A DNA stretch of 64,000 nucleotides. Source: an uncultured Actinomycetota bacterium. Its GTDB lineage: Bacteria; Actinomycetota; Actinomycetes; Prado026. How positions within the stretch are numbered: the stretch's first letter is position 1; each line of letters opens with the position of its first letter. Shown here piece by piece: positions 5,348-53,650 of the stretch. The notes under the pieces are model-generated. The model saw nothing but the letters and a program-made list of their open reading frames with translations, was not told the DNA's origin and did not search any database. Position numbers and translations under genes: made by a program. The DNA lies in assembly GCA_963711005.1 (NCBI GenBank), contig CAVQCJ010000002.1:475729-539728 (forward strand), read 5' to 3'.

Positions 5348-5372
5348 AGCCCGTTCGGTAGAGCCCGGTTGA

Positions 5373-15606: not shown

Positions 15607-15616
15607 GTCGGCCTCC

Positions 15617-21759: not shown

Positions 21760-21787
21760 GACGTCGCGCCGCCCCCAGCCGGTCACG

Positions 21788-23356: not shown

Positions 23357-23665
23357 GCGCGCGCGCCTCACAGGTGTAAGAGCTGAAAGTGGACGAAACC
23401 CCCTGGGCCCGCCCCCGGTCCCCGGTAGTGAGGATATCTGTCGCGAGAGCGTACGGAATGGTCGCGCACAGTGACGTCCTCTCAACGGTCGGTGCATGTC
23501 CTCCGAACGGTCAGGGTCCCGTGGTCCACACGGTCACAACGACCGCCAGAACGTCCGGATCGACCGGGCACCGCTTCCCTCCGGTTGTCACCGTGCGTAG
23601 CGTTCGGTGTCGCGGCGAGCGCAGGTCGGGGAGGACCTCGCAGCCGAGGGGTTAGGGACGGTTGC
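23357..23665. promoter_or_regulatory. divergent promoter region between the PCP operon (-) and the Alg14/Alg13-ST/GT2 operon (+), containing three phased ACGGTC repeats
   Basis: 309-bp non-coding gap with locally lower GC. ACGGTC occurs at 23485-23490, 23507-23512 and 23530-23535, spaced 22 and 23 bp apart. Confidence 0.35.
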
Positions 23666-35513: not shown

Positions 35514-37049
35514 TCAGGTGGACGACGCGATCGCGGCCTTCCACGCCAGCACCGAGTTGGTGTCGAGCAGGCGGTAGTCCTTCGTGACGGGCGAGTCGAA
35601 GTACGTCACGAACAACGCACTCTGTGCGGACAGGTACGCCGCCGATGCCCGCAGCCAGGCGGCGCGCCCGGCCCCGGTGGTGTCACCGGCGATGATCTGG
35701 CTGCCGAACTCCGTGACGGCGAACGGCTTGCCGGTGGACTTCGACATGGCCAGCACCGCGGCGAACTGCGCGGCAGGGTCGATGTACGAACCCTTGCCCC
35801 AGTTCTGGTTGTAGCAGTCCCAGCCGAGGACGTCGATGTACGCCGACCCCGGGTAGTAGTCCGCGAAGGAGCGGCCCGAGTAGCTGGTCAGCGTGTAGCA
35901 CATCAGGATCATCGTGGCGTGCAGACGCGGGTTCTGCGCCTTGTCCGCCAGCGTCGAGATCCGCTGCCACGCTGCCCGGTAGTCGGCCGCCGTGAAGTCG
36001 CCGGCCTCGATGTTGTCCTCGGGCTCGTGGTAGTAGGTCCAGTAGATGTCGCGATCGCGCGGGGCGGTCTCGAACCAGCTGGTCAGCGTCGCATCGTAGG
36101 TGCCGGACAGCACCTGCTGCGGGGTCGCCTTGAAGGAGACCGACACGGTCGTCCCGCTGTAGCCTGCGTTGCCCGGCCACGGCTTGGGCAGGCCCGGGTA
36201 GTAGACGCGGTCCACCGGGAGGTCGCCGAACTCCTTGACCCGACGCTGGTAGGCCGTCTCGAAGGTCTCGCCGGGCTCCTGGTAGACGCTGGTGCCGAAC
36301 AGCGTCCCGGACGGGTTGCTGACCGGGGGCGTCGGGGTGGGCGTCGGCGTCGGGGTCGGCGTCACCGTCGGGATGGCCGTCGGGGTCGGCGTCGCGGTCA
36401 CCGTGGGCGTCGGGGTGGGCGTCGAGGTCGGCGGCGGCGGGGGCGGGTCGGTGACGACCGTGTTCTCGGACAGCCACACGTCGTCGACCAGCAGCGCGTG
36501 CCCGGGCACGAGGCTACGGGCGAGCACGTTGAAGTCGAGCTGGTCGCCGGCCTTGACCGCCGTGTAGTCGAACTCGATCTTCGTCCAGTCGGACGCCTTC
36601 AGCCGCACCTGCTGTCCGTGCTGGCCGACCAGGCTGCCGGTGCCGGAGACCTCCCGGATGCGGAGCACGGCGTCGACGTAAGGGGTGGTCGTCTTGACCC
36701 ATGCGGCCGCGTGGTAGACCGCGCCCTTGTCGGTCTTGGTCACCGAGTTGGGGCTGTCCTTGAGTGCCACGGTCCCGGCGCTCGCGCCCCACAGCTTGGC
36801 GGAGAAGCCGCCCGTGTGGCCGTCGTTGGCCCGGTCCACGTGCTGCGAACCGGTCAGCGTGGTCCATCCGGTCAGGTCCTGCTCGAACCCGGGGTTCGCG
36901 ATGAGGTTCGGTGATCCACCGGCCATCGACGTGCCGATCACTGCAGCGATGCCGGAGGCTGCGAGCAACGACAGGACTGTCGCTGCTGAGGTCACTCGTC
37001 CAGCGGGGGTGAGACGGCGAGGGGACCGTCCCGGTGAGCGATGCCGCAT
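35514..37049 (-). CDS. secreted glycoside hydrolase: N-terminal CBM4/9-like domain, Pro/Thr linker, C-terminal GH26-like TIM-barrel domain
   Basis: 511 aa. Signal peptide with an RR motif. The CBM-like block NLIANPGFEQDLTGWT...VDDVWL is followed by the linker PPPPPPTSTPTPTPTVTATPTPT.... The catalytic region carries YWTYYHEPE and FAVTEFGS. Confidence 0.8.
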   Translation of the reverse strand: MRHRSPGRSPRRLTPAGRVTSAATVLSLLAASGIAAVIGTSMAGGSPNLIANPGFEQDLTGWTTLTGSQHVDRANDGHTGGFSAKLWGASAGTVALKDSPNSVTKTDKGAVYHAAAWVKTTTPYVDAVLRIREVSGTGSLVGQHGQQVRLKASDWTKIEFDYTAVKAGDQLDFNVLARSLVPGHALLVDDVWLSENTVVTDPPPPPPTSTPTPTPTVTATPTPTAIPTVTPTPTPTPTPTPPVSNPSGTLFGTSVYQEPGETFETAYQRRVKEFGDLPVDRVYYPGLPKPWPGNAGYSGTTVSVSFKATPQQVLSGTYDATLTSWFETAPRDRDIYWTYYHEPEDNIEAGDFTAADYRAAWQRISTLADKAQNPRLHATMILMCYTLTSYSGRSFADYYPGSAYIDVLGWDCYNQNWGKGSYIDPAAQFAAVLAMSKSTGKPFAVTEFGSQIIAGDTTGAGRAAWLRASAAYLSAQSALFVTYFDSPVTKDYRLLDTNSVLAWKAAIASST

Positions 37050-37353
37050 GATGTTGTCTCCCGAGGGGTTTGCGAGCCGGTGAGGGGGCCGGTCTGCGAA
37101 CGCTTCCCCCCTGGGATCGGCCCGGTGGCAGACCTCCTTGACCGGGCCGTGACCTTGCCAGAACAGGCCTAAAGGTCATGAATCAGCACAAATCGGGCAC
37201 CGCACCCGTTGGGGGTCTGGGACACCAGTTCGGGGGGTTCACTCGATCGGGTCAGCACCGACGGACTTACCGGGGCCAGGACTGTAACCGAGCGTGCCCG
37301 GAGGTCGCTCCCTGCTGTCGAGAACTGTGGATAACCCTGTGGAGATCGCTCGG

Positions 37354-38346
37354 TCAGACCGAGGTCTCGGCCCCGTCGGACGGCGTGGCCGTCTGCTCGA
37401 CGGAGTCGCCGTCTGCTCGCTGCCCGGCTCCCGGCCGCGGCTCGTACCGAGACAGCGCCGGCAGCCCGTAGGAGCGGCGCACCTGCATCCAGGCCAGGGA
37501 GCCGACGACGATCGTGACCAGGAGGATCCAGGCCAGTGCCGTGGTGCCGACGCCGACGAGCTTGAGACCGGACGCCAGCAGCACCAGCGTGAGGGCCCGG
37601 CGGATGATGCCGCCCCGGGCCTGCGAGGAGAACCGTGCCCCGATGTACACGCCGGGGATGCAGCCCACCAGCAGCGACGCCGTGATCCCGAGCTGGAAGT
37701 CGCCGTACAGCACGTGCCCGAGCGCGGCCGCGGCGACGAGCGGCACCGCCTGGACCAGGTCGGTCCCGACCAGCTGGTTGGCCTTGAGGACGGGGTAGAG
37801 CATCAGCAGCGCGATGATGATGAGCGACCCGGAGCCAACGCTGGTCATGCCCACGACCAGGCCACCGACCGCGCCGATCGCGATCGTCGGCAGGACCTTC
37901 ACCTTCAGCGGGGGCGGAACGGGGCTGGTGTCCACGGCGAGCCCCTGCGAGCGCCGCTGCACCCGCTCGCGCAGGGCGAGGTACGTCTTGACGATGAGGC
38001 CGAGGACGGCCAGGAGCAACGCGTATCCCAGCGCCTGCTTGACCACGCCCTGCAGGTCTGCCGCGCCGAGCGCGCGCAGCACGAACACCCCGGCGAAGGC
38101 GCACGGCACCGACCCGATGGCCAACCACTGGACGAGCTTCCAGTTGACCGTGCCGCGGCGGATGTGCACCGCGGCACCGACCGGCTTCATGAACACCGAC
38201 GCGACCAGGTCGCTGGAGACGGCGGCGAGTGGCTGGATGTTGAAGACGAGGACCAGGATCGGGGTCATCAGCGCGCCGCCACCCATACCGGTCAGACCCA
38301 CCACGACGCCGACGATCAGCCCGGCCAGGGCCAGTCCGTAGTCCAT
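37354..38346 (-). CDS. TauE/SafE (TSUP, DUF81) family anion permease
   Basis: MDYGLALAGLIVGVVVGLTGMGGGALMTPILV... with the duplicated 4-TM pattern of TSUP proteins. ATG 38346 overlaps the cysC-fusion stop as ATGA. Confidence 0.8.
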   Translation of the reverse strand: MDYGLALAGLIVGVVVGLTGMGGGALMTPILVLVFNIQPLAAVSSDLVASVFMKPVGAAVHIRRGTVNWKLVQWLAIGSVPCAFAGVFVLRALGAADLQGVVKQALGYALLLAVLGLIVKTYLALRERVQRRSQGLAVDTSPVPPPLKVKVLPTIAIGAVGGLVVGMTSVGSGSLIIIALLMLYPVLKANQLVGTDLVQAVPLVAAAALGHVLYGDFQLGITASLLVGCIPGVYIGARFSSQARGGIIRRALTLVLLASGLKLVGVGTTALAWILLVTIVVGSLAWMQVRRSYGLPALSRYEPRPGAGQRADGDSVEQTATPSDGAETSV

Positions 38347-39818
38347 CAGCCGTCCTCTCCTCGTGCCGTGGGCGCGAAGCCGCGCAGGCGCAGCTCCGCC
38401 AGGACCAGCTCCACCGCAGTAGCCACATCGACAGCCGAGGTGTCCACCCGGAGGTCCGCGTCGGCGGGTTCTTCGTAGGGGTCGCTCACCCCGGTGAACT
38501 CCGGCAGCAGCCCGGCTCGAGCCTGGGCGTACAGCCCCTTCCGGTCCCGGGCCTCGCAGACCTCGAGCGGGGTGCTGACGTGCACGAGCAGGAACTCCCC
38601 ACCGGCGTCGGCCGCCATCGCACGCACCGCGGCCCTGGTGCTGTCGTACGGCGCGATCGGCGCGCACAATGCCACCCCGCCGTGCCGCGCCACCTCGGCG
38701 GCGACGAAGCCGATGCGGCGGACGTTCGTGTCCCGGTCCGCTCGAGAGAAGCCCAGGCCCTTGGACAGGTGCCGCCGCACGACGTCGCCGTCCAGCAGGG
38801 TCACCGTGCGGTCGGTGGACTCCAGCAACGCCTCGGCGACCCCCTGCGCGACGGTCGACTTGCCCGACCCGGACAGGCCGGTGAAGAAGAGGACCACCCC
38901 GCGACGCTCCGGCGGCGGGCGGTGGGCGCGCAGCACGTCCAGCGCGGCCTCGGGGAAACCGGACCCCTGCTCGACCAGCCAGTCCAGCTCGGCCCGGGTG
39001 GCCGGCGGCAGGTGCAGCGCCTGCGGCACGCCGTAGGCCTTCGCCACCGTCTCGCGAAGGGCCAGGTCGACGGTCGTACCCGTCCCGGTCAGCGGCAGCG
39101 CCACGGGGACCACGACGGATCCGTCCGGGAGCGCGGGCAACGTGGCCCGGAGCGCGCGCACCAGTCCGAAGGCGCCCGGGTACGGGGCGCGTCCGTGCCC
39201 GACCAGGGCCAGCACCAGGACCGGTTGCCCGGCCGCCCGCGCGGCCACGACCGCCAGGTCGTCGGCGATGAGCGGGCGTGCGGTGGTGACGGCCAGGGCG
39301 GGCGGCACCGGGCGGGCCGCCACCTCGGCCGGAGTCAGCCGCATCCGGCGGAACGGGCCGTGGCTGAGCGGGCGCAGCCCGGTGACCGCACCCGCGACCA
39401 GAACCGGTCCCGGCTCGCCGTCGTCGGCAGCACCCGCGTCGTCGACCGGGGAGGTCGCCGTGACCTCGAGCAGGGCGACCGGAACGCCCTCGGCGTCCTC
39501 GAGCACCGCCCGGCCGCCCGCGGCGACGGCGCGGGCGAGCTCGGCCGGCACGGTCAACGGGACCTGGAGCAGGGCGCCCGGCTCGCCGGGGAGCGTGAAA
39601 CCGCCGGTGACGATCCCGGCCAGCTCGAGCTCGACGAGGTCCAGCGCCGCGCCCTCGACATGCACGGACGGCAGCGCGGCCAGCTCCTCGGGAAGCACCC
39701 CGACGCTGAGCGCCACCGCCTCGGCGACCACCTGCGCGACGACCTGGTCGGAGGTCAGACCCTCATCCGGGGGCCCGGCTTCCGACTCGGTCGTGTCGTC
39801 CATCGCCGCCTGTTCCAT
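38346..39818 (-). CDS. cysC: adenylylsulfate (APS) kinase fused to an N-terminal degenerate ATP-sulfurylase-like domain
   Basis: The C-terminal 190 aa carry FFTGLSGSGKSTVA, LDGDVVRRHL, FSRADRDTNVRRIGFVA and CAPIAPY, which is canonical CysC. The N-terminal ~290 aa are colinear with Sat (PUA-like plus catalytic fold). QTRNPxHRAH is replaced by TTARPLIADD, and no GRDHAG motif is present. Confidence 0.85.
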   Translation of the reverse strand: MEQAAMDDTTESEAGPPDEGLTSDQVVAQVVAEAVALSVGVLPEELAALPSVHVEGAALDLVELELAGIVTGGFTLPGEPGALLQVPLTVPAELARAVAAGGRAVLEDAEGVPVALLEVTATSPVDDAGAADDGEPGPVLVAGAVTGLRPLSHGPFRRMRLTPAEVAARPVPPALAVTTARPLIADDLAVVAARAAGQPVLVLALVGHGRAPYPGAFGLVRALRATLPALPDGSVVVPVALPLTGTGTTVDLALRETVAKAYGVPQALHLPPATRAELDWLVEQGSGFPEAALDVLRAHRPPPERRGVVLFFTGLSGSGKSTVAQGVAEALLESTDRTVTLLDGDVVRRHLSKGLGFSRADRDTNVRRIGFVAAEVARHGGVALCAPIAPYDSTRAAVRAMAADAGGEFLLVHVSTPLEVCEARDRKGLYAQARAGLLPEFTGVSDPYEEPADADLRVDTSAVDVATAVELVLAELRLRGFAPTARGEDG

Positions 39819-39838
39819 CGGTTCCGCGGGTACGGCGT

Positions 39839-41092
39839 TCAGTCGCCGGCCGTGATCATCCCGGCCGCGACGGTGCGGTTGGTCGCCTCGTCGACGAGCA
39901 CGAAGCCCCCGGTGGTGCGGTTGCGCGAGTACGGGTCGCAGAGCAACGGCTGGGTGGTCCGCAGGCGCACCCGGCCGATCTCGTTGAGCCGCAGCTCCTC
40001 GGCCGCCTCGTCGCGGTGCAGGGTGTTGACGTCGAGGCGGTACTGCAGGTCCTTGACCATCGCCCGCACCCCGCGGGTGGTGTGCTTGACCGCCAGCTTC
40101 TGGCCGGCCCGCAACGACGAGGTGCCGTCCATCCAGCAGATCATCGCGTCGATGTCCTGGGTGACGAGCGGCTGGTTGTGCGGGCGGCAGACCATGTCGC
40201 CGCGCGAGACGTCGAGGTTGTCCTCCAGTCGCACGGTGACCGACATGGGCGGGTACGCCTCGTCGACCGGGCCGTCACCGGTCTCGATGGACGCGATCCG
40301 CGACGTGAACCCCGACGGCAGCACGACGACCTCGTCGCCGGGCTTGAGCACGCCGCCGGCCACCTGGCCCGCGTAGCCGCGGTAGTCCGGGTACGCCGAC
40401 GACTGCGGCCGGATCACGTACTGGACCGGGAACCGCACGTCGACCAGGTTGCGGTCGGAGGCCACATGCACGTTCTCCAGGTGGTGCAGCAGCGACGGGC
40501 CGTCGTACCAGGGCATCTTGTCGCTGCGGGTGACGACGTTGTCGCCGTTGAGCGCCGACACCGGGATGAACGTGAGGTCCGGGATGTTCAGCTTGGTCGC
40601 GAACGCCGTGAACTCGGCGCGGATGTCCTCGAACACCTGCTCGGAGAAGTCGACCAGGTCCATCTTGTTGATGCACAGCACGAGGTGCGGCACCCGCAGC
40701 AGCGTCGTGAGGAACGCGTGCCGGCGGCTCTGCTCGACCAGGCCGTTGCGCGCGTCGACGAGGATGATGGCGAGGTCGGCGGTCGAGGCCCCGGTGACCA
40801 TGTTGCGGGTGTACTGGATGTGGCCGGGGGTGTCCGCGATGATGAACTTGCGCTTCGGGGTCGCGAAGTACCGGTAGGCCACGTCGATCGTGATGCCCTG
40901 CTCGCGCTCGGCTCGGAGCCCGTCGGTGAGCAGCGCGAGGTTGGTGTACTCGTCGCCGCGCTCCCGGCTGGTGCGCTCGACCGACTCGAGCTGGTCCTCG
41001 AAGATGGCCTTGCTGTCGTACAGGAGCCGTCCGATCAGCGTGCTCTTGCCGTCGTCGACCGAGCCGGCGGTGGCGAACCTGAGCAGGTCCAT
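39839..41092 (-). CDS. cysN: sulfate adenylyltransferase subunit 1 (GTPase)
   Basis: 417 aa. GSVDDGKSTLIGRLL, DTPGHIQYTRNM, NKMDL. No fused kinase domain. ATG overlaps the cysD stop (ATGA at 41092). Confidence 0.95.
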   Translation of the reverse strand: MDLLRFATAGSVDDGKSTLIGRLLYDSKAIFEDQLESVERTSRERGDEYTNLALLTDGLRAEREQGITIDVAYRYFATPKRKFIIADTPGHIQYTRNMVTGASTADLAIILVDARNGLVEQSRRHAFLTTLLRVPHLVLCINKMDLVDFSEQVFEDIRAEFTAFATKLNIPDLTFIPVSALNGDNVVTRSDKMPWYDGPSLLHHLENVHVASDRNLVDVRFPVQYVIRPQSSAYPDYRGYAGQVAGGVLKPGDEVVVLPSGFTSRIASIETGDGPVDEAYPPMSVTVRLEDNLDVSRGDMVCRPHNQPLVTQDIDAMICWMDGTSSLRAGQKLAVKHTTRGVRAMVKDLQYRLDVNTLHRDEAAEELRLNEIGRVRLRTTQPLLCDPYSRNRTTGGFVLVDEATNRTVAAGMITAGD

Positions 41093-42027
41093 CAGAAGTA
41101 GCCTTCCTTCTTGCGGTCTTCCATCGCGGCCTCGCTGACCTTGTCGTCACCGCGGGTCGCACCGCGCTCGGTCAGCCTGGTGACCGCGACCTCGTCGATG
41201 ATCTTGTGCAGCGTGTCGGCCTCGGAGTAGACCGCCGCGGTCAGCGTCGCGTCGCCGACGGTGCGGTACCGGACCGTCGCCGTGAAGACCTCGTCGCCGG
41301 GGCGCGGCCGGGAGAACTCGGTGACCGCCATCACCATCCCCTCGCGCACGAACACCTCGCGTTGGTGGGCGAAGTAGATGGACGGGAGCGCGATCTGCTC
41401 AGTGGCGATGTACTGCCACACGTCCAGCTCGGTCCAGTTGGACAGCGGAAAGACCCGGATGCTCTCCCCCGCGTGCACCCGGCCGTTGTAGAGGCTCCAC
41501 AGCTCGGGGCGCTGGTTCTTGGGGTCCCACTGCCCGAACTCGTCGCGGAACGAGAACACCCGCTCCTTGGCCCGGGCCTTCTCCTCGTCCCGGCGGGCGC
41601 CGCCGAACAGCGAGTCGAAGCGGTACTTCTCGGCGGCCTCGAGCAGGACCTGGGTCTGGATCCGGTTGCGCGAGCCGTTGGGCTCCTCGCGGACGATGCC
41701 GCGGTCGATCGCGTCCTGGACCGAGGCGACGATCAGCTGCAGGCCGAGCTCGCCGACGCGGCGGTCGCGGAACGCGAGCACCTCGGGGAAGTTGTGCCCG
41801 GTGTCCACGTGCAGCACCGGGAACGGGATCGCGGCCGGCCAGAACGCCTTCTCGGCCAGCCGCAGCATGACGATGGAGTCCTTGCCGCCGGAGAACATCA
41901 GCGCCGGGCGCTGCATCTCCGCGACCACCTCGCGGATGATGTGGATGGACTCCGCCTCGAGCGCCCTGAGCTGGCTCAGGTTGTAGTCGCGGCCGGGCGC
42001 CCCCGGGTTGGTGTCGGCCGGCGTCAC
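41092..42027 (-). CDS. cysD: sulfate adenylyltransferase subunit 2
   Basis: LRALEAESIHIIREV...LMFSGGKDSIVMLRLA...HVDTGHNFPEV. GTG 42027 overlaps the cysQ stop as GTGA (42024-42027). The rest of the 509-aa track ORF is a shadow extension. Confidence 0.95.
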   Translation of the reverse strand: MTPADTNPGAPGRDYNLSQLRALEAESIHIIREVVAEMQRPALMFSGGKDSIVMLRLAEKAFWPAAIPFPVLHVDTGHNFPEVLAFRDRRVGELGLQLIVASVQDAIDRGIVREEPNGSRNRIQTQVLLEAAEKYRFDSLFGGARRDEEKARAKERVFSFRDEFGQWDPKNQRPELWSLYNGRVHAGESIRVFPLSNWTELDVWQYIATEQIALPSIYFAHQREVFVREGMVMAVTEFSRPRPGDEVFTATVRYRTVGDATLTAAVYSEADTLHKIIDEVAVTRLTERGATRGDDKVSEAAMEDRKKEGYF

Positions 42028-42794
42028 AGGGCAACCTCCGAGATCGTCGTCAGCACACGGTCCGCGAGCTCGGGCCGGCACACCACCAGGTCGGGCAGGA
42101 GGACGTCGCGGCGGTTGTACAGCAACGGCGACCCGTCCAGCCGGGAGGCGTGCAGCCCGGCTGCCAGGGCCACGGCGACCGGGGCCGCCGAGTCCCACTC
42201 GTACTGTCCGCCCGCGTGCACGTACAGGTCCACCTCGCCACGCACGACGGCCGCCACCTTGTAGCCCGCCGAACCCATCGGCACCGCCTCCAGGCCCAGC
42301 CGCTCGACCAGGCGCTGGGCGACCGCCGGCGGCCGGGTGCGGCTGACGGCCATCCGGAGCCGGGCGTCCGGGCCGCCGGCCGGCGGCGGGACGACCGGTG
42401 CCGGGTCGGTGCCCAGGACCAGGTCCAGGCCAGGCAGGGCCACCGCACCGGCGGCCAGGTCCCCGTCGGCCCAGAGCGCCACGTGGACGGCCCAGTCGTG
42501 CCGGCCCTCGGAGTACTCGCGGGTCCCGTCCAGTGGGTCGATGATCCAGACGCGGGCGGCGTCGAGGCGGCGCAGGTCGTCCGCAGCCTCCTCGGAGAGC
42601 ACCGCGTCGTCCGGGCACCACTGGGCGAGCCGTTGCGCGAGCAGGTCCTGGGAGGACCGGTCGCCGAGCACTTTGAGCTCGGCCGGGTCAGCCGCGGGGT
42701 GTCCGGCGCGGACGGAGACGAGCAGCTGACCGGCCTCGTACGCCAGTGCGGCAGCGCGTTCGGCGTCGCTCGAGGTCGTCGGCACGGACACCAT
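42024..42794 (-). CDS. cysQ: 3'(2'),5'-bisphosphate nucleotidase (PAP phosphatase), IMPase family
   Basis: VLSEEAADD, WIIDPLDGTREY and YEWDSAAP are IMPase/CysQ motifs. Start at ATG 42794 (alternative 42863, 15 nt below the PGT stop). Confidence 0.85.
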   Translation of the reverse strand: MVSVPTTSSDAERAAALAYEAGQLLVSVRAGHPAADPAELKVLGDRSSQDLLAQRLAQWCPDDAVLSEEAADDLRRLDAARVWIIDPLDGTREYSEGRHDWAVHVALWADGDLAAGAVALPGLDLVLGTDPAPVVPPPAGGPDARLRMAVSRTRPPAVAQRLVERLGLEAVPMGSAGYKVAAVVRGEVDLYVHAGGQYEWDSAAPVAVALAAGLHASRLDGSPLLYNRRDVLLPDLVVCRPELADRVLTTISEVAL

Positions 42795-42877
42795 CCTAAG
42801 AACCTCGGTGACGCTGCGTGATCGCACCGGGGCGACGACCATCGGATTCGTTGTTCCGGGCATCTGCGACCGCCGGC

Positions 42878-44380
42878 TCAGTACGCGCCGCTACCGCGGA
42901 GCACGGCGCGGGCGGTCTTCCACAGGATGAGCAGGTCCGTCGCGAGGGTCCAGTTGTCCACGTAGCGCAGGTCCAGGCGGACGGACTCCTCCCAGGACAG
43001 GTCCGCACGACCGCTGACCTGCCAGAGCCCGGTCACGCCGGGGCGCACCAGCAGCCGGCGCCGGGTGTCGTCGGCGTACTCGGCGACCTCCTCCGGCAGC
43101 GGCGGGCGCGGCCCGACCAGCGACATCGAGCCGGTCAGCACGTTGAACAGCTGGGGCAGCTCGTCCAGGGAGTACCGGCGCAGCCACGTGCCCACCCTGG
43201 TCACCCGCGGGTCGGCACGCATCTTGAACATCAGTCCGTCGCGGTCGGAGTGCTCGAGCAGCTGCTCGCGCAACGCCTCGGCGTCGACGACCATCGAGCG
43301 GAACTTCCACATCGTGAACGGCCTGCCGTCCTTGCCGATCCGCTGCTGGCGGAAGAACGCGGGGCCGCGGCTGGTCAGCCGGACCGCCAGGGTGATCGCG
43401 AGCAGGAGCGGAGAGAACAGCACGATCATCGCCAGCGCGAACGTCCGGTCGAAGGTCGACTTCACGATCCGGCGGCCGCCGGTGAACTGAGGCTGCTCGA
43501 CCTGCAGCAGCGGGAGGCCGGTGACCGGGCGGATGCTCAGCCGGGGACCGGCGACCTCGACCAGGGACGGGGCGACGAGCAGGTCGGCCCCGGTCGGCTC
43601 GAGGTCCCAGGCCAGCCGGCGAAGCTGCTCGGGACCGAAGTCGGGGCTGGCCAGCACCGCCACCGTGTCGGCGTCGGTGAGTCGGACGGCCTGCTCGACG
43701 GAGCCGAAGCCACCGACCACCGGGACACCGCGCTCCATCAGCGCGGGACGCTGGCCCGGCAGCGGCAGGCACGCGGCCACCACCTGCAGGCCGTGGAAGC
43801 GCTCGTCGCCGAGCCGGCGCAGCATCTCCAGGACGGGCACCTCGTGCCCCACGACGACGACCCGGTGCAGGTACTCGCCCTTGGCCCGGCGGCTGTGCAG
43901 CCACTGCCGCAGCACGTACCGGGCACCGACCGTGAGCATGGTGACCAGCGGCAGGCTGATCAGGACGTAGTGCCGACCCTCACTGCGGTTGGCCAGGTAG
44001 GCGGTGAAGGCGACCACGGCGGTGAGCGTCACCCCGGCGCGGGCCACCCGGCGGAACTCCTCCGAGCCGACACCGAGGAACCGTGGCTCGTACGCACGGT
44101 TGAGCGAGACAGCCAGCACCCACACGAACGGGATGACCACCGTCAACGTGTTGTAGACGCGCGGGACGTAGCCGGTCGGCGCCGTCAGATAGGTCACGGA
44201 CCCGGCCACCAACGCGGCGGCGGCGTCGACGCCGATGCACAGCCGTACGTAGTGGCGCTGCCAGCGCGACTCCGGACGTACGACGGCGACGTCCCCCGAG
44301 CGCGCCGTGGTGACCGATGCCCTCCGCAGCCCCTCGCTCGGGGCCAACCCCAGGCCCTCGCGATGGTCCAGCACAGCCAT
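42878..44380 (-). CDS. polyprenyl-phosphate glycosyl-1-phosphate transferase (WbaP/CpsE-type priming enzyme)
   Basis: N-terminal TM bundle plus a central Rossmann-like region. C-terminal Bac_transf domain: KRTFD..., FKMRADPRVTRVG..LRRYSLDELPQLFNVL.G.MSLVGPRP, RPGVTGLWQVSGR. ATG 44380 has a GGGAG SD (alternative GTG 44410). Confidence 0.9.
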   Translation of the reverse strand: MAVLDHREGLGLAPSEGLRRASVTTARSGDVAVVRPESRWQRHYVRLCIGVDAAAALVAGSVTYLTAPTGYVPRVYNTLTVVIPFVWVLAVSLNRAYEPRFLGVGSEEFRRVARAGVTLTAVVAFTAYLANRSEGRHYVLISLPLVTMLTVGARYVLRQWLHSRRAKGEYLHRVVVVGHEVPVLEMLRRLGDERFHGLQVVAACLPLPGQRPALMERGVPVVGGFGSVEQAVRLTDADTVAVLASPDFGPEQLRRLAWDLEPTGADLLVAPSLVEVAGPRLSIRPVTGLPLLQVEQPQFTGGRRIVKSTFDRTFALAMIVLFSPLLLAITLAVRLTSRGPAFFRQQRIGKDGRPFTMWKFRSMVVDAEALREQLLEHSDRDGLMFKMRADPRVTRVGTWLRRYSLDELPQLFNVLTGSMSLVGPRPPLPEEVAEYADDTRRRLLVRPGVTGLWQVSGRADLSWEESVRLDLRYVDNWTLATDLLILWKTARAVLRGSGAY

Positions 44381-44624
44381 GTGTAGATCTCCCGCCCCTG
44401 TGCGCACCACCCGTCCGGAGCCGACGAAGCCCGCCGCCCCGGCCGGGTGATCCGGCGAGTCTAGGGAGGCGGTTCGTGCCGGTTAAAGGCCAAGCGGCGC
44501 GAATCGTCCGAACGTAGGACCTGTTCGACCGTTCGTCTCACGCAAGCGTGTGCACCCGTCACTCAACGTGTCGAGGCGATGTCCCGGAGTTCGCTCCTTC
44601 AACCTCCTGAGGAGCCGCCCGGGC

Positions 44625-45239
44625 CTACTCGGGGTCGACGTGGAAGCGGTTCTGGGTGGGCTCCAGGCCGTCGAGGACCAGCCCCTCGACGGCGTCCGCG
44701 GCTCGGTCCACCAGGAACGGCACCTCCATGGCCTGCGCCGACGAGAACGGCTTGAGCACGAACGCCGCCGGATCCTGGGTCCCGGGCGGCCGGCCGATCC
44801 CGAACCGGGTCCGCAGGTACCCGGGTCCGCCCAGCGACTTGGTGACCGACCGCAGCCCGTTGTGGCCGCCGTCGCCGCCGCCGCGCTTGAGCCGCAAGGT
44901 CCCGAACGGCAGGTCCAGCTCGTCGTGGACGACCACGATCCGCTCGTGCGGCACCTTGAAGAAGTCGCGCATCGACGCGACCGGACCGCCGGACTCGTTC
45001 ATGTACGACTTGGGCTTGACCAGCACCACCGGCTGCCGCTGCGGGGAGCCGGGCGCGCCGAACGCGCCCTCGACCAGGTCCGCGCGGCCACGGTGCGCCT
45101 TGAACCGCGCTCCCAGCCGTCCGGCGAGCAGGTCGACGACCAGGAACCCCGCGTTGTGCCGGGTGGCGGCGTAGGACGGTCCGGGGTTTCCGAGGCCGAC
45201 GATCAGCCAGCGACCGCCGTCGCCGCTGGACGTGGGCAC
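44625..45239 (-). CDS. pth: peptidyl-tRNA hydrolase
   Basis: [50 protein letters not shown]. Confidence 0.95.
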
Positions 45240-45274
45240 GGTGCTCTCCGGGTGTGACGGACGGGTGCCCTGGG

Positions 45275-45907
45275 TCAGCCCTCGTCGGCGGAGTCGGCCG
45301 GCTGGTCTCCGGCCGCGGCACCCTCGCCCGCCTCGCCGGCCTCGCCGGCCTCGGGCTCCGGCTCCTCCTCGACGGTCGGGGCGGCGGCGATGAGCACGAT
45401 CTGGTCCGCGTCCGCGACCAGCGTGGTGCCGGCGGGCAGGACCAGGTCCCCGGCGCGGACGACGGTGCCGACCTCCAGGGTGTCGACCTCGAGCACGATC
45501 TCGCGCGGGATGTGGGTGGCCTCGGCCTCGACCGACACGGCGGCGGAGACGAGCTCGACGATCGCCCCGGCGACCCGGCCGTGGACGGACACCGGCACGT
45601 CGATGGTGACCTTCTCGCCGCTGCGGACGATCACCAGGTCGATGTGCTCGACGGTCTGCCGGACCGGGTCGCGCTGGATCGACTTCGGCAGCGTGAGCAG
45701 ATCCGTCCCGTCGGCGATGCCGACCCGGAGCAGGACGTTGGCGGTCTTGAGCGCGAGGGTGAGCTCGTGTCCGGGGAGCGCGACGTGCGCGGGAGCCGTG
45801 CCGTGGCCGTAGATGACACCGGGGACGTTGCCGGCCCGACGGGTCCGGCGGGCGGCACCCTTGCCGAACTCCTGGCGCTGCTCGGCCTTGATGCGGACCT
45901 CGGGCAT
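45275..45907 (-). CDS. rplY: 50S ribosomal protein L25/general stress protein Ctc
   Basis: [36 protein letters not shown], plus the acidic C-terminal tail typical of actinobacterial L25. Confidence 0.95.
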
Positions 45908-46020
45908 CGCTGTGCTCCTCTGTTCTCGTCGATCACGGATCTCGGCGGCGTCTCACCGCCGGTCCCTCGCCGGGCAGCGGGCAGTCTACGGGCGCCCCGC
46001 GCGCTCCCCCAAACCGCGGG

Positions 46021-47001
46021 TCAGGCGTTGCCGTCGAAGAGGCTGGTGACCGAGCCGTCGTCGAACACCTCGCGGATGGCCCGCGCGATCAGCGGGGCGA
46101 TCGAGAGCTCCGTGAGCTTGTCGAACCGCTTGTCCTCGCTCAGCGGCAGGGTGTTCGTGACCACGACCTCCGACACCCGGCTGTTCTTGAGCCGGTCGAC
46201 GGCCGGCCCCGAGAACACCGCGTGGGTCGCCGCGATGATCACGTCGGCGGCGCCGTAGTCGTACAGGGCGTCGGCGGCCTTCACGATCGTCCCGCCGGTG
46301 TCGATCATGTCGTCGACCACGACGCAGACCCGCCCACGGACGTCCCCGACCACGCGGTTGGCGACGGCCTCGTTCGGGACCAGCGGGTCGCGGCTCTTGT
46401 GGATGAACGCCAGCGGGCAGCCGCCGAGCACCTGGGTCCAGCGCTCGGCCACCCGCACCCGCCCGGCGTCCGGGGACACCACGGCCAGCCTGGCGACGTC
46501 GACCCGGCCGCGGACGTACTGGGCCAGCAGCGGCAGCGCGAAGAGGTGGTCCACCGGGCCGTCGAAGAAGCCCTGGATCTGCGAGGTGTGCAGGTCGATG
46601 ACCATGAGCCGGTCGGCGCCGGCGGTCTTGAACAGGTCGGCGATCAGCCGCGCGGAGATCGGCTCCCGGCCGCGGTGCTTCTTGTCCTGGCGGGCGTACG
46701 GGTAGAACGGCATGACCACGGTGATGCGTTTGGCCGACGCCCGCTTGAGGGCGTCCACCATGATCAGCTGCTCCATCACCCACTTGTTGATGTCGGTGCC
46801 GTGGCTCTGCAGCACGAACGCGTCGCTGCCGCGCACCGACTCCTCGAACCGCACGAAGATCTCGCCGTTGGCGAAGTCGTACGACGAGGTGGGCGTGACA
46901 TCGGAGTCGAGGTACTCGGCCACCTCGTCCGCGAGCTCCGGGTAGGCGCGACCGGAGAAGAGCATCAGCTTCTTCTCGCTGCTCGTCTTGATCGAGCTCA
47001 C
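46021..47001 (-). CDS. prs: ribose-phosphate pyrophosphokinase
   Basis: 326 aa. [29 protein letters not shown]. The GTG start overlaps the glmU stop (GTGA at 46998-47001). Confidence 0.97.
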
Positions 47002-48500
47002 TGGCCCTGCTCCTCGCTCTGCACGGACGGCTGTGACGGCTGGGACGGCTCTGCTCCCGATGATGCCGCAGCGGAGGCCGCCGCGGCGGCCCGGGCCGAC
47101 TCCGACCCAGCGCGACGCCGGGCCACCCAGCCGGCGATCGTCCGCTGCCGGGCCCGGCCGACGGCCATCGCCCCGGGCGGGACGTCCTCGGTGATGACCG
47201 AGCCCGCGGCGGTGTAGGCCCCGTCGCCGATGTCGACCGGAGCGACCAGCATGGTGTCCGAGCCGATCCGGACGTGGTCACCGACGGTCGTGCGGTGCTT
47301 CGCCTCGCCGTCGTAGTTCACGAAGATCGTCGCGGCGCCGATGTTGCTCCCCGCCCCGATCTCGGCGTCCCCCACGTACGTCAGGTGCGGCACCTTCGAG
47401 CCGGTCCCGATCACGGCGTTCTTGGTCTCGACGTAGGCGCCGATCTTGCCGTCGGCCCCGAGCACGGTCCCGGCCCGCAGGTAGGCGAACGGCCCCACGC
47501 TTGCGCGCGGGCCGATGTCCGCGCCGGTGGCGTGGCTGCGCACGACGGTGGCCTGCGGCCCGATCGTGCAGTCAAGCAAGGTGGTGTCCGGTCCCACGGT
47601 CGCGCCGGCAGCTACGCTCGTCGAGCCGAGCAGCTGGGTGCCCGGGAGCAGCGTGACGTCGGCGGCGAGCTCCACCCCGGCGTCCAGCCACGTGGTCTGC
47701 GGGTCCACGACGGTCACGCCGGCTCGCATCCAGCCCTCGACCAGCCGGTCGCGCAGCACCCGGCCCAGGCCGGCGAGCTGGATGCGGTCGTTGACCCCCT
47801 CGGTCTCCCGGGAGTCCTCGACGAGCACGGCGTGCACCGCATGCCCGTCGGAGCGCGCCATCGCGACGACGTCGGTGAGGTACGCCTCACCGGCCGCGTT
47901 GTCAGTGGTCAACCGGCCCAGCGCGTCGGCCAGGAAGGCCGCGTCGAACGCGTAGATACCGGTGTTCACCTCGGCGACAGCCGCCTGCTCGGCGGTCGCG
48001 TCCTTCTGCTCGACGATCGCCGCCACCGCGCCGTCCGCGTCGCGCAGGACCCGCCCGTAACCGGTGGGGTCGGCGAGCTCGGCGGTGAGCACGGTCACGG
48101 CGTCGCCGCCGGCGTCGTGCACCCCGACCAGCTCGCGCAGCGTCGCGGTGGTCAGCAGCGGGACATCTGCGTAGGTCACGACGACCGTGCCGGACAGCTC
48201 GGCCACCCCGCCCAGTGCGGCCAGCCCGCAGCTCGCGGCGCGACCGGTGCCCTTGACCTCGTCCTGGTCGGCGACGACGACGTCCGGGGCGATCGCGGCG
48301 AGATGGTCGACGACGGCGTCCCGCTCGTGCCGGACCACGACCACCAGGTGCAGGGGCTCCAGACCGCGCGCGGCGGCGATCGCGTGCCCGAGCAGGCTCC
48401 GGCCGGCGATCTCGTGCAGGACCTTGGGCCGGGCGGAGCGCATGCGGGTGCCCTCGCCCGCGGCGAGCACGATGACGGCGGCCGGACGGCTGCGGCTCAC
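46998..48500 (-). CDS. glmU: bifunctional UDP-GlcNAc pyrophosphorylase / GlcN-1-P N-acetyltransferase
   Basis: [19 protein letters not shown] at the N-terminus, hexapeptide-repeat C-terminal half, and an Ala/Ser-rich tail. Start at GTG 48500. The 788-aa track ORF is an over-extension. Confidence 0.95.
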
Positions 48501-48594
48501 GCGGCTCCTCGACGACAGCGGCGGGGACTGCGGGGCTGGGACCCGGTCGCTGGCCGCGGACCGGACCCTTCGAGGATACCGGGCCGGTCGGGGG

Positions 48595-48667
48595 CTCCGC
48601 CGCCTGGACTCGATCCAGGACCGCAAGCCTTCAAAGGGCTGCAGGCTACCAATTACCCCACGGCGGA
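48595..48667 (-). tRNA. tRNA-Gln (anticodon UUG)
   Basis: Hand-folded 73-nt cloverleaf. The acceptor TCCGCCG/CGGCGGA has 7 perfect bp with U1:A72 and G73. The D-arm GGGT-AATTGGTA-GCCT has G18G19. The anticodon loop is CTTTGAA. The T-arm is CCTGG-ATCGAGT-CCAGG. No CCA is encoded. It lies upstream of glmU. Confidence 0.7.
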
Positions 48668-51097: not shown

Positions 51098-53650
51098 CTA
51101 GACGTACGAGTGCTTGCGCAGCCAGCGCATCGCGACCGAGCCCCACAGCGGCGGCAGGTAGAACGTGACCAGGCGGAAGGCGAGCGCCGTCGAGATCGCG
51201 ACGCTGCTCGGGATGCCGATCGCCTGCAACCCCGCCGTGAGCCCGGCCTCCGCGACGCCCACGCCGCCGGGCACGGGCATCAGACCGGCGAAGAGAGCGA
51301 CCAGCGTGTTGATGAGGATCAGCTGGGAGAAGTACGCGTGCGCGCCGAAGGCGCGCAGGCACAGCCCGAGGACCATCGCCTGGATCAGCTGGGCGCCGAG
51401 GTTGCCGGAGAGCATCTCGATGACCTTCAGCGGGTGCCTGATCACGCCGAGGGCGGTGCGCGCCGCGCTCGCCTGGGCGCGGATGGTGGCGCGGATCCGG
51501 GGGATCGCCTCGCGGATCCGCCGGCGGGTGCGCGGCAGCGCGATGGCCACCAGCAGCCCCACGACCAGGATGATCGCAGCCAGCGCGGCGACGCTGATCG
51601 ACGAGCTGTCCGAGGACGTGCTGCTCGACGAGCTTCCGCCGACCGGCTCGGTGAGGCCCGGCGCCGGGCTGAGGACGATCAGCAGGATCAGCACCACCTG
51701 GACCACGAACCCGCTGACGCTGTCGATGACGCCGATCGACAGTGCCCCGGCCGCGGCGATGCCGAACCGCTCGAAGAACCGGATCTCCAGGGCCAGCCGC
51801 GCCGCGGTGGCCGGCAGCACGACGGCGATGAACTGGATCGCGTACTGCAGCAGCAGCACCGGTCCGTAGCGCACCGGCGCGATCGACGCCCCGAGGGTCG
51901 AGAACGACAGCGCGACCTGGATCAGCGGCGACGCGAGCAGCGCAGCGAGCAGCCACCACGGGTTCGCCGACTTCAGCTCGGCCCACAGCGACGCGAAGTC
52001 GACCCCGGCCAGCTTGCTGATGACGAAGTACGCGAGCACCGCGCCGCCGACGACGTACAGGACGTGCCGCAGCGAGACCCGACGGAGCCGCTGCAGCGGC
52101 GGCGGCTCGACACCGGTCAGCTCGACGGCCTGGGCGCGCAGCGAGGCGAGGTCCCACGAGCCGTCGCTGACCCTGGACCTGGTCGCCCGGTCCAGCACCG
52201 CGGGCTGCAGGAACGGCACGGCGGCGGCCAGACCGTCGTCGCCCAACGCTTCGTGGGCCGCGGCGACCGCCGACTCGTGGCCGGCGGCGAGGGCGGTGGT
52301 GACCAGCATCCGGGCGCAGTCGCTGCGCATGGCCACGTCGCTGCCGGACAGCTCGGCGCCGGCCAGGTCGCAGAGCGCCACCGAACCGTCGTGCCGGATC
52401 ACGACGTGGTCGGCGTCCACCCGCCCGTGCGCGATCCCCAGCCCGTGCAGCCGCTGCAGCGCGCGCCAGGCACCGGCGAGCACCTGCGTGGTCAGCTCGT
52501 CCCGGCTCAGGTCGGCCAGCGTGCGGGCCGCGGCATCGGTGGCGAGCATCCCGTCACCGTCCGCCGACATCCCTACCACCACCACCGGCAGCACCGCGGC
52601 TCCCCCGCGCTCGGCCAGCAGCGTGGCGACCGCCTCGTGCTCGACCAGCTCGAGCCGTCCTCGGGTCAGGCTCGGCGTCTCCCCCCTGCGCCACAACGAG
52701 TTCCACACCGAGGCGAGGAACTGACCGTCCCAGGTGTCGCGTCCGTAGACCTTGATCGTCAGCGGCCGGCCGTCCTCGGCCACCGCCTGGAGCACCGCGA
52801 CGCCGGTGGCCTGCGACGGAGCCTCGCGGACTTCGCTGCACACCAGTCCGAGGTCGGCGAGGGCCTCGGCGACCTGAGCGGGGGTGAGCCGCCCGTCCGG
52901 CGAGCCGAACATCAGGTGGGTCGCGGCGGCCGCCGCCACACCGACGGCGAAGCCGGCCAGGATCCCGATGGGCAGCGCGACGCCGAGCCCCACCCCGGCC
53001 ACGCTGCCGAGCAGCAGGATGCCGCGTCCCACGTTGCGCAGCGGCCGGGACAGGTGCGGCGACAGCACGACCACGATGGCGGTGGCCACCGCCAGCAGCA
53101 CGGCGACGTACACCGCCGGCGGTTCGGTGCGCGTGATCGCGCGGAGGCTGGTCGACCAGTCGGTGCCGGAGATCCGGCCCGCCACCAGGGCGGCCCCGAG
53201 CGAGAGCGCGGCCGCCACCCCGACATCCCAGAAGAGCCGGCGCCGGCCGTGGGAGAACAGCACGATCAGCAGGAGCGCGACCGACCATGCGGACAGCAGC
53301 AGGTAGGCCAGCTCCCACAACCAGCCGGACAGCCCAGGCAGCGACTGGATCAGGCTGGTCAGCGACTCGTCCAGGCTCGTCGGCCCCGGTGCCGCGATCG
53401 CCACGAGCCCGGTGGCGACCAGTGCCAGCGCGAGGAAGAAGACGTCGGTTGGCCGGCGCAGCCGCGCCGAGTCCGGGGCGGAGGAGAAGACCCGTAGGCC
53501 CGCCAGGCTCAGCCGGTGGCGGCGCCGGGACCGCTCGGGCCCGGGTGCAGACCCGCTCGGCGGCGTCGGCCCGGGGGCTTGGGCCGGCTCGGGCGCATGC
53601 AACGGCCTCGCCTCCCGAACGCCGCTCCGGCCCCCGCCACCGTCGGACAC
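51098..53650 (-). CDS. large membrane protein: N-terminal TM region, central protein-kinase-like domain, C-terminal flippase-like (LPG_synthase_TM/UPF0104) domain
   Basis: 850 aa. The kinase-like block contains LTIKVYGRD...LVEHEA...LHGLGIAHGRVDADHVVI...VALCDLAGA. The C-terminal half contains ...LIQAMVLGLCLRAFG...LFAGLMPVPGGVGVAEAGLTAGL..., which is characteristic of the MprF-type flippase TM domain family. Confidence 0.7.
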   Translation of the reverse strand: MSDGGGGRSGVREARPLHAPEPAQAPGPTPPSGSAPGPERSRRRHRLSLAGLRVFSSAPDSARLRRPTDVFFLALALVATGLVAIAAPGPTSLDESLTSLIQSLPGLSGWLWELAYLLLSAWSVALLLIVLFSHGRRRLFWDVGVAAALSLGAALVAGRISGTDWSTSLRAITRTEPPAVYVAVLLAVATAIVVVLSPHLSRPLRNVGRGILLLGSVAGVGLGVALPIGILAGFAVGVAAAAATHLMFGSPDGRLTPAQVAEALADLGLVCSEVREAPSQATGVAVLQAVAEDGRPLTIKVYGRDTWDGQFLASVWNSLWRRGETPSLTRGRLELVEHEAVATLLAERGGAAVLPVVVVGMSADGDGMLATDAAARTLADLSRDELTTQVLAGAWRALQRLHGLGIAHGRVDADHVVIRHDGSVALCDLAGAELSGSDVAMRSDCARMLVTTALAAGHESAVAAAHEALGDDGLAAAVPFLQPAVLDRATRSRVSDGSWDLASLRAQAVELTGVEPPPLQRLRRVSLRHVLYVVGGAVLAYFVISKLAGVDFASLWAELKSANPWWLLAALLASPLIQVALSFSTLGASIAPVRYGPVLLLQYAIQFIAVVLPATAARLALEIRFFERFGIAAAGALSIGVIDSVSGFVVQVVLILLIVLSPAPGLTEPVGGSSSSSTSSDSSSISVAALAAIILVVGLLVAIALPRTRRRIREAIPRIRATIRAQASAARTALGVIRHPLKVIEMLSGNLGAQLIQAMVLGLCLRAFGAHAYFSQLILINTLVALFAGLMPVPGGVGVAEAGLTAGLQAIGIPSSVAISTALAFRLVTFYLPPLWGSVAMRWLRKHSYV

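Follow-up and report, generated by a model that had tools for sequence, protein, structure and literature searches.

What does a full set of sulfate-activation genes serve when it lies head to tail with the gene for an enzyme that begins a polysaccharide? The question is raised by a stretch of 64,000 nucleotides from an uncultured Actinomycetota bacterium (contig CAVQCJ010000002.1, positions 475,729 to 539,728), hereafter the window, in which six minus-strand genes follow one another from 44380 down to 37354. They encode a priming polyprenyl-phosphate glycosyl-phosphate transferase (PGT), CysQ, CysD, CysN, CysC and a TauE-family permease. We think it probable that the six genes form one transcription unit that supplies activated sulfate for a Wzx/Wzy-dependent sulfated extracellular polysaccharide. 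The starting points for this reading are observations, namely the gene identities, their junctions, the conservation of their synteny and the statistics of their association in other genomes. The six genes are as follows.

42878-44380, minus strand: PGT, the priming polyprenyl-phosphate glycosyl-phosphate transferase (PF02397, Bac_transf, 232 bits; TIGR03025, 424 against a cutoff of 296)
42024-42863 (alternative starts 42842 and 42794), minus strand: cysQ, a CysQ-type 3'-phosphoadenosine 5'-phosphate (PAP) phosphatase (PF00459, Inositol_P; 5DJF)
41092-42027, minus strand: cysD, the small subunit of a GTP-dependent ATP sulfurylase (TIGR02039, 440 against a cutoff of 397)
39839-41092, minus strand: cysN, the GTPase subunit of ATP sulfurylase, not fused to CysC (TIGR02034, 577 against a cutoff of 336)
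38346-39818, minus strand: cysC, a two-domain adenosine 5'-phosphosulfate (APS) kinase of 490 amino acids (APS_kinase domain, residues 306-459)
37354-38346, minus strand: tauE, a TSUP/TauE-family permease and putative sulfate importer (PF01925, 144 bits)

Genes were called from codon-position G+C and open reading frame analysis and identified by Pfam and NCBIfam profile scans. The G+C content of the window is about 72%, that at third codon positions (GC3) is 0.92-0.99 in all six operon genes, and the gene content and the relatives found point to a soil-type actinobacterium. A preliminary description of the window had reported six tightly packed genes on one strand, and both the profile scans and our reading of the junctions confirm their identities and order. 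It had also listed three 4-nt overlaps, only one of which stands: cysQ and cysD share GTGA (42027-42024), but the supposed ATGA overlaps of cysD with cysN (at 41092) and of cysC with tauE (at 38346) are both TGATG overlaps of a single nucleotide. The cysN-cysC gap is 20 nt, and that between PGT and cysQ varies with the cysQ start codon chosen: 14 nt for the ATG at 42863, 35 nt for 42842 and 83 nt for 42794. Since an in-frame RSRSV(T) peptide upstream of 42794 is conserved in relatives, the longer CysQ and the shorter gap are favored. Within the six genes, no promoter-like or terminator-like site was found on the operon strand, and one weak terminator-like hairpin lies 3' of tauE (37208-37194). 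The absence of cysH, sulfite reductase, cysK and cysE from the window, which the preliminary description had also reported, is borne out by Pfam scans of the ∼50 called genes and by tblastn with the Sir and CysH proteins of Oerskovia.

The individual proteins carry the features expected of their assignments. The PGT matches TIGR03025, the EPS_sugtrans model, above its curated cutoff, and has both the C-terminal PF02397 catalytic domain of a large PGT and an N-terminal membrane/CoA_binding_3-like region that matches PF13727. CysD scores 445 bits with NF009214 (cutoff 413) and contains the SGGKDS PP-loop, and CysN, encoded directly after it, contains the G1, G3 and G4 motifs GKST, DTPGH and NKMD. 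The best NCBIfam match of CysQ, TIGR01331, reaches 99 bits and is under the 229-bit cutoff. The protein nevertheless aligns with Mycobacterium tuberculosis CysQ (5DJF) at an E-value of 2.4e-69, as against 1e-9 or weaker for inositol monophosphatases, and the metal-binding motifs DPLDGT and WD are present. By sequence comparison, it is a close homologue of the characterized M. tuberculosis PAP phosphatase.

CysC had been named correctly in the preliminary description, which overlooked its degenerate, ATP-sulfurylase-like N-domain. The kinase domain scores 181 bits with TIGR00455 (cutoff 139) and has the P-loop GLSGSGKST. Pfam recognizes nothing in the N-terminal ∼300 residues, where neither a PUA_2 nor an ATP-sulfurylase domain was found. 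A profile built from 28 family members, however, aligns end to end with the Thiobacillus denitrificans protein 3CR8 (E 3.9e-130) and also aligns with fungal and Aquifex ATP sulfurylases. In this alignment the N-domain is ∼60 residues shorter than that of 3CR8, has TTARPLIADD at the position of the catalytic QTRNPMHRAH and lacks the GRDHAG loop. The N-domain is thus very probably a degenerate, shortened, and noncatalytic relative of ATP sulfurylase whose role is probably structural; that of 3CR8 has been reported to be noncatalytic as well (Gay, Segel and Fisher 2009, cited in PMC4373884). We also considered a bifunctional sulfate adenylyltransferase (SAT)/APS kinase with an active sulfurylase; the loss of the QxRNPxHxxH and GRDHAG motifs speaks against it, and CysC fails the corresponding model NF004040 (296 bits against a cutoff of 669). 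Because the catalytic motifs are gone from CysC, ATP sulfurylase activity would rest with CysDN. TauE matches its family over the full length (profile positions 1-237 of 237 in PF01925), and tauE adjoins cysC in most of the related loci that have both genes. Import of sulfate is our best guess at its function, made by analogy with a characterized family member discussed below.

Polysaccharide island around the operon

A Wzx/Wzy polysaccharide island of ∼35 kb, with the operon as one of its arms, lies between two housekeeping blocks, glmU-prs-rplY-pth (44625-48500) and mfd-mazG-eno-ftsB (2-8903), which we take to adjoin each other in M. tuberculosis. Homologues of the long CysC led us to four contigs from relatives, designated L001, L002, L083 and L084, in which CysC is 94, 83, 71 and 62% identical to that of the window, respectively. 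The remainder of the island is laid out as follows.

35514-37049, minus strand: gene for a secreted glycanase with CBM4_9 and GH26-like domains, immediately after tauE and preceded by a conserved region of its own; present in L001, L002, L083 and L084
26813-35500, no strand assigned: lineage-specific insertion of ∼8.7 kb, recognized by its G+C, its weak coding signal and its absence in relatives
23666-26768, plus strand: Alg14-like gene, gene for an Alg13-like glycosyltransferase-sulfotransferase fusion, and GT2 gene (by Pfam); conserved beside the cys operon in relatives
13775-23371, minus strand: Wzz, DUF3048, Wzy, kinase/aminoglycoside phosphotransferase (APH)-like gene, sulfotransferase 2, Wzx, GH26-like gene and sulfotransferase 1 (by Pfam and motifs)
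8952-13535, minus strand: PKD/malectin protein of 1527 amino acids at the far (mfd) end of the island (by Pfam), of uncertain membership in the system

All four relatives share the order tetR, glmU, prs, rplY, pth, PGT, cysQ, cysD, cysN, cysC, tauE and CBM/GH gene, and the junction types of the window operon are repeated in them, so the six-gene arrangement is more than chance. Downstream, all four have genes for GT2, the Alg13-sulfotransferase fusion, Alg14, Wzz, DUF3048 and Wzy. The operon lies directly beside the GT2, fusion and Alg14 genes in L083 and L084 and ∼3-5 kb from them in L001 and L002.

The preliminary description had assigned the operon to neighboring sulfotransferases. Three such genes are indeed present in the island (24307-25800, 17188-18048 and 13775-14581), but they are not close by, lying 11.5-23.6 kb from the operon. 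Part of this distance is an ∼8.7-kb insertion that had gone unnoticed. Its G+C is 0.655-0.70, compared with ∼0.72-0.75 elsewhere, and its codon-position G+C signal is weak. The genes within it belong to the DUF222 (an HNH-endonuclease-associated family), CMD, glyoxalase-like, Lipoprotein_15 and luciferase-like oxidoreductase families, together with one for a surface-anchored protein. The stretch is absent from L083 and L084, and a different stretch of ∼3 kb takes its place in L001 and L002. Because the GH gene and the GT2 gene are only ∼60-500 bp apart in L083 and L084, we read the stretch as a lineage-specific insertion into a contiguous cluster.

All three sulfotransferases contain a 5'-phosphosulfate loop of the RSGTT/RCGTT/RSGST type, which binds 3'-phosphoadenosine 5'-phosphosulfate (PAPS), and a reading of their N-termini gives no evident signal peptide. 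The RDP/RDS motif occurs in sulfotransferase 2 and in the fusion protein, whose two loops read RSGST and RDSP. In the fusion protein (24307-25800, plus strand), residues 17-153 make up an Alg13-like Glyco_tran_28_C domain and residues 190-423 a sulfotransferase domain. All four relatives have the fusion, and tblastn matches to it in Paractinoplanes and Streptosporangiaceae span ∼300 residues, the sulfotransferase-sized part only. Joined in one protein, the two domains suggest a coupling of sulfation with glycosyl transfer on a lipid-linked intermediate.

The kinase/APH-like gene (18066-19319, minus strand) encodes a 417-residue protein that matches no Pfam or NCBIfam model. Its HGDWNAGN and DWE motifs are those of aminoglycoside-phosphotransferase/protein-kinase-like enzymes, and at 39% identity it is homologous to a WpsI-type gene product of the wps-1-type clusters discussed in the last section. 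Its 328 homologues appear to be confined to Actinomycetota among the matches carrying names. The protein may phosphorylate the glycan.

The island encodes two GH26-like proteins within one Wzx/Wzy cluster (14578-15642 and 35514-37049, both on the minus strand), one of them membrane-anchored and the other with a CBM4_9 module and a Pro/Thr linker. The presence of a GH26 enzyme in a cluster of this kind was called unprecedented in a recent study of Actinoplanes (PMC13390465). At the mfd end, the 1527-residue protein (8952-13535) has PKD, malectin and Rax2-like domains and an unusual composition, with G+C of 0.59, 0.58 and 0.97 at the first, second and third codon positions. A weakly similar PKD protein is encoded downstream of cysN in one of the loci described below (L029). 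The protein could be a glycan-binding surface protein tied to the polysaccharide.

Taken together, homology and context suggest the following route; the co-transcription of the six genes, the substrates, the sulfated product and any dedication to sulfation over assimilation are likewise inferred. Sulfate would enter the cell through the TSUP permease and be converted to APS by CysD and CysN with hydrolysis of GTP, and two-domain CysC would phosphorylate APS to PAPS. At the cytoplasmic face, the PGT would begin a repeat unit on polyprenyl phosphate, and Alg13/Alg14 and the GT2 enzyme would extend it. The three cytoplasmic sulfotransferases, one of them fused to the Alg13-like transferase, would then sulfate the lipid-linked sugars, and the inhibitory by-product PAP would be hydrolyzed by CysQ. 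Finally, Wzx, Wzy and Wzz would flip and polymerize the units and set the size of the polymer, which the GH26-like enzymes would trim.

Settings of cysD across genomes

A scan of species-representative genomes with the window CysD gave a best set of 80 loci at 66-78% identity, none of them from the source genome or its close relatives, and to these we added L001 and L002. The window proteins and the Sir and CysH proteins of Oerskovia were mapped onto these 82 cysD loci, a gene within 1.5 kb of cysD being counted as linked. By this measure, cysQ is linked to cysD at 55 of the 82 loci and cysH at 10 (7 of which also have sir), and no locus has both. None of the 10 cysH-linked loci has a match to CysC, the PGT, a sulfotransferase or pth. 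The APS reductase route needs no CysC, and the one Oerskovia CysH translation that we read has a CC...CxxC pattern, which we take to be typical of APS reductases. Linkage to cysQ or to cysH thus separates sulfation-type from assimilation-type cysDN loci in this sample.

The PGT gene accompanies cysQ-cysD-cysN at 17 of the 55 cysQ-linked loci, spread over several actinobacterial families, and the full order pth-PGT-cysQ-cysD-cysN recurs in Actinoplanes, Krasilnikovia, Streptosporangium, Actinomadura and Bailinhaonella. In four loci of Streptosporangiaceae, cysN is followed directly by a sulfotransferase gene and a GT2 gene, and then by Wzx and a second sulfotransferase gene, and two of the four also have the kinase-like gene and Wzy. 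In a neighbor-joining tree, CysN of the window falls within a large, mostly cysQ-linked clade, with Terrabacter, Oryzihumus and one uncultured actinobacterium as its nearest neighbors. Seven of the 10 cysH-linked CysN proteins, 50-62% identical to that of the window, branch outside this clade, and two others are not in the tree.

These comparisons lend good support to the proposal of the preliminary description that the operon is a self-contained module for PAPS generation and PAP clearance in the service of sulfotransferases, as far as context can indicate function. Five observations point the same way: the three sulfotransferase genes in the same island, the adjacency of operon and sulfotransferase gene in relatives, the cysN-sulfotransferase junctions in Streptosporangiaceae, the mutual exclusion of cysQ and cysH linkage, and the precedent in Actinoplanes described in the last section.

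Several points weigh against a function in polysaccharide sulfation. Within the window, the PGT-cysQ gap could be as long as 83 nt, and the nearest sulfotransferase gene is 11.5 kb away from the operon. The association counts are biased in that the 80 loci are those most similar to the window CysD, and one cysH-linked locus (L053) lies inside the cysQ-linked CysN clade. Micromonospora and Salinispora (L003-L010, L015, L018 and L021) keep pth-cysQ-cysD-cysN with no match to the PGT, cysC, tauE or a sulfotransferase within 10 kb; in L003, the one annotated locus among them, galK and galE lie downstream in convergent orientation. In some lineages, the cysQ-linked set may thus serve sulfate activation in general. 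In addition, a sulfated polysaccharide has been chemically shown in no actinomycete, and verification of the product of wps-1 of Actinoplanes is still awaited (PMC13390465).

The Micromonospora and Salinispora loci, where neither glycan nor sulfotransferase genes are nearby, fit a second explanation, in which the operon is the sole sulfate-activation system of the cell and a branch point with two uses. APS would pass both to an APS reductase encoded elsewhere, for cysteine, and to CysC and PAPS, for sulfation, so that the link to glycan synthesis, though real, would leave room for the other use. One CysD/CysNC complex does supply both branches in M. tuberculosis, where reduction and sulfation part at APS (PMC4373884). 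This explanation is compatible with an operon that feeds sulfotransferases but not with the exclusion of assimilation that the preliminary description put forward. We regard it as unlikely, though it deserves serious weight. The cysH/sir-linked cysDN operons of Oerskovia, Crystallibacter and Aeromicrobium belong mostly to separate CysN lineages, which suggests two functional types, and Aeromicrobium offers both: the locus of A. flavum (L028) is cysQ-type and that of a congener (L064) is cysH-type, compatible with the presence of both types in one genome.

Within the proposed sulfation module, the direction of transport by TauE admits another view, namely that the protein exports sulfite, a sulfonate or another sulfur anion, or moves a sulfonucleotide. 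Its Pfam family takes its name from exporters of sulfite and sulfoacetate, and at eight loci (L007, L026, L028, L033, L035, L036, L050 and L056) tauE travels with cysC and not with cysDN. Four observations make this view rather doubtful. TauE homologues also flank the cysH-linked, assimilatory loci L058 and L076, and the sulfotransferases have no evident signal peptide, which would make PAPS export needless. The sulfation module of Cobetia, considered below, likewise has a sulfate permease (PMC11766843). Finally, genetics identifies CysZ of Corynebacterium glutamicum, a DUF81 protein encoded with cysDN, as a system for high-affinity sulfate uptake, the mutant being unable to grow below 5 mM sulfate (PMC1266029).

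That the six genes are an ordinary assimilatory cys operon placed by chance beside a polysaccharide cluster, with no functional link to the PGT or the sulfotransferases, is highly improbable: cysD, cysN and a permease are standard assimilation genes and the operon does adjoin the housekeeping genes pth, rplY, prs and glmU, but cysC and cysQ would be superfluous for assimilation through APS reductase, cysH and sir are missing from the window, the cysH-linked loci have none of the cysC, PGT or sulfotransferase matches, PGT and cysQ are adjacent across families (their tblastn match ends overlap or closely abut in L029, L048 and L071), and sulfotransferase genes directly follow cysN in Streptosporangiaceae.

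Candidate regulatory DNA and other window features

The region between pth and the PGT gene may hold the promoter of the operon.

44381-44624, minus strand: pth-PGT intergenic region, a candidate for the promoter and 5' leader of the operon, with ∼90% identity to L001 and L002

Four boxes in this region are invariant in five relatives: CGTGAG, ACGTTCGGA(C/T)GATTC, TCCCTAGACTC, which contains a -10-like TAGACT, and the ribosome-binding site GGGGCGGGAG. The second and third of these lie ∼75-135 nt upstream of the PGT start, and the start itself (ATG at 44380) is as invariant as its ribosome-binding site. A sigma-70 consensus scan of 36900-44700 returned no promoter; conservation and position suggest that the region may act as one. 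The region between tauE and the GH gene (37050-37353, minus strand) has conserved blocks of its own, for example GGGCCGATCCC, and a near-invariant AGCGTTCGC box before the GH gene. Both intergenic regions are conserved about as well as coding DNA among the relatives, and their boxes are candidate promoters or operators. Neither a riboswitch upstream of the operon nor an Rfam match to the intergenic boxes was found; the Rfam and tRNA scans gave only tRNA-Gln (48593-48667).

Two short motifs were examined besides these. Of the six copies of the 8-mer CGTTCGGA in the window, four are intergenic, and three of these four (44507, 23502 and 13722, all on the minus strand) lie upstream of minus-strand transcription units of the cluster, namely the operons that begin with PGT and with Wzz, and the gene for the PKD protein. 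Only weakly enriched, found post hoc and only partly conserved in relatives, the 8-mer is a weak candidate for a shared regulatory site. The sequence TTATCCACA (37326-37334, minus strand), a perfect Escherichia coli-type DnaA box, follows the tauE stop by 20 nt; L001, the closest relative, is the only one to share it, and it is probably due to chance.

Elsewhere in the window, an MprF-like lysyl-phosphatidylglycerol system is divided between two genes that lie 8 kb apart on opposite strands and encode its halves: an 834-residue LPG_synthase_TM protein (51098-53602, minus strand) and a 712-residue protein with a rhomboid-like N-terminus and an LPG_synthase_C domain (61585-63723, plus strand). 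A protein of the ComB-like 2-phosphosulfolactate phosphatase family (55232-55957, minus strand) is encoded near CoxG-like and methyltransferase genes. It represents another sulfur-related family and has no obvious partner genes in the window.

Likeness to known systems

Two of the operon proteins have characterized relatives in other settings. CysZ of C. glutamicum (Cg3112) resembles TauE at the level of the TSUP/DUF81 family; it too is actinobacterial and encoded in an operon with cysDN (PMC1266029). That operon, cysIXHDNYZ, is assimilatory and includes cysH and cysI, whereas the window operon has neither. The second relative is 3CR8, the hexameric APS kinase of T. denitrificans, which has two domains and whose N-domain also lacks the QxRN and HxxH residues. 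The N-domain of the window CysC differs in being shorter and beyond Pfam detection, and the protein co-occurs with CysDN in one operon.

As an enzyme set, the window operon is matched by CysD/CysNC, CysQ (Rv2131c) and the Stf sulfotransferases of M. tuberculosis. M. tuberculosis differs in its fused CysNC, in the scattering of its genes and in its products, which are sulfated lipids, while the window has one operon and, we propose, a Wzx/Wzy polysaccharide. Dedicated sulfate activation is known from Sinorhizobium (NodP/NodQ) and Xanthomonas (RaxP/RaxQ), whose additional paralogues of CysD and CysN-CysC serve the sulfotransferases NodH and RaxST and not cysteine synthesis. Their acceptors are a lipo-chitooligosaccharide and a peptide tyrosine, and a second, housekeeping set is established in those organisms. 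To our knowledge, neither module includes cysQ, a permease or a PGT. With these modules, and with that of Cobetia, the window operon shares a physical and evolutionary link to sulfotransferase genes.

A close match in operon content is Cobetia marina KMM 1449, in which an operon of cysN/C, cysD, cysQ and a sulfate permease was described in 2025 within the cluster for a chemically verified sulfated capsule (PMC11766843). As in the window, sulfate activation, APS kinase, PAP phosphatase and sulfate permease are united in one operon of a polysaccharide cluster with sulfotransferases, and the authors likewise explain the operon by PAPS supply and PAP removal (PMC11766843). The differences are several. 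C. marina is a gammaproteobacterium that exports its capsule through an ABC transporter (kps), as opposed to Wzx/Wzy. Its CysN and CysC are fused, whereas the window has a separate CysC with a dead ATP-sulfurylase-like domain. No priming PGT was reported in its operon, and the window operon has one. The product of the window is a prediction from its genes, and the permeases are likened here by function.

Dedicated sulfate-activation genes for sulfotransferases were therefore already known, as was a cysN/C-cysD-cysQ-permease module in a sulfated capsule cluster (PMC11766843), and we regard our finding as sound and useful but unsurprising to a specialist. What the window adds is an actinobacterial setting in which the module is physically joined to a priming PGT and to a Wzx/Wzy cluster of the wps-1 type. 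It also adds a permease of the TSUP family, a CysC whose sulfurylase-like domain is dead, a pth-anchored, cysQ-linked arrangement of wide occurrence, and an explanation for an Actinoplanes mutant. For genome annotation, linkage to cysQ or cysH sorts sulfation-type from assimilation-type cysDN in our sample. Sulfated polysaccharides are valued biomaterials and are usually held to be rare in bacteria outside the cyanobacteria. From this locus and the many related to it, soil actinobacteria would seem to be fully equipped to make them, with genes for sulfate uptake, synthesis of the donor, removal of the by-product, priming, sulfation and export.

The Wzx/Wzy arm of the island resembles the wps-1 cluster of Actinoplanes missouriensis, described in 2026 as a set of genes for GT2, a sulfotransferase, GT26, DUF4262, GH26, a methyltransferase, Wzx, a second sulfotransferase, a protein-kinase-like protein, Wzy and Wzz (PMC13390465). 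Sporangium formation depends on wps-1 and on AMIS_7390, a gene for a SAT/APS kinase next to it, and deletion of AMIS_7390 causes a severe sporangium defect with normal growth (PMC13390465). We made the comparison through a locus of Paractinoplanes abujensis (L085), found with the kinase-like protein, and used the published gene list for A. missouriensis itself. L085 encodes a two-domain SAT-like/APS kinase, Wzz, Wzy, the kinase-like protein, a sulfotransferase, Wzx, a methyltransferase, GH26, GT26, a second sulfotransferase and GT2, in agreement with the published wps-1 list (PMC13390465). Nine window proteins are collinear with it at 35-55% identity, namely the two-domain CysC, Wzz, Wzy, the kinase-like protein, a sulfotransferase, Wzx, GH26, a second sulfotransferase and GT2. 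Of the wps-1 genes, those for GT26, the methyltransferase and DUF4262 are missing from the window, which has Alg13/Alg14, DUF3048 and a third sulfotransferase.

A further difference concerns priming and the supply of sulfate. Neither L085 nor the published account of wps-1 lists the PGT, cysQ, cysDN or permease genes, all of which are in the window island, and the gene beside the GT2 end of the L085 cluster is for a DeoR-type regulator, not cysDN. In other Actinoplanes species (L016 and L025), PGT-cysQ-cysDN adjoin pth. The system is thus probably split over two loci in Actinoplanes-type genomes and united in one island in the lineage of the window, and the pth-linked PGT becomes a candidate for the priming enzyme missing from wps-1 as published.

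A broader proposal, which we offer tentatively and hold to be possible without expecting it, is that the pth-anchored PGT-cysQ-cysDN set, with cysC-tauE attached or elsewhere, is the missing initiation and sulfate-donor half of wps-1-type systems. Sulfated Wzx/Wzy exopolysaccharides would then be fed by a distinct, horizontally mobile, cysQ-linked CysDN lineage widespread in soil Actinomycetota (Micromonosporaceae, Streptosporangiaceae, Thermomonosporaceae, Intrasporangiaceae and uncultured lineages), and the dead CysC domain might dock on CysDN and channel APS to PAPS, away from reduction. If true, this proposal would contradict the confinement of bacterial sulfated polysaccharides to cyanobacteria. 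For Actinoplanes itself, the AMIS_7390 phenotype is what loss of PAPS supply would be expected to produce, so that the window, by comparison with wps-1, offers a simple explanation for an unexplained sporangium defect and points to a candidate for the enzyme that primes the wps-1 polysaccharide.

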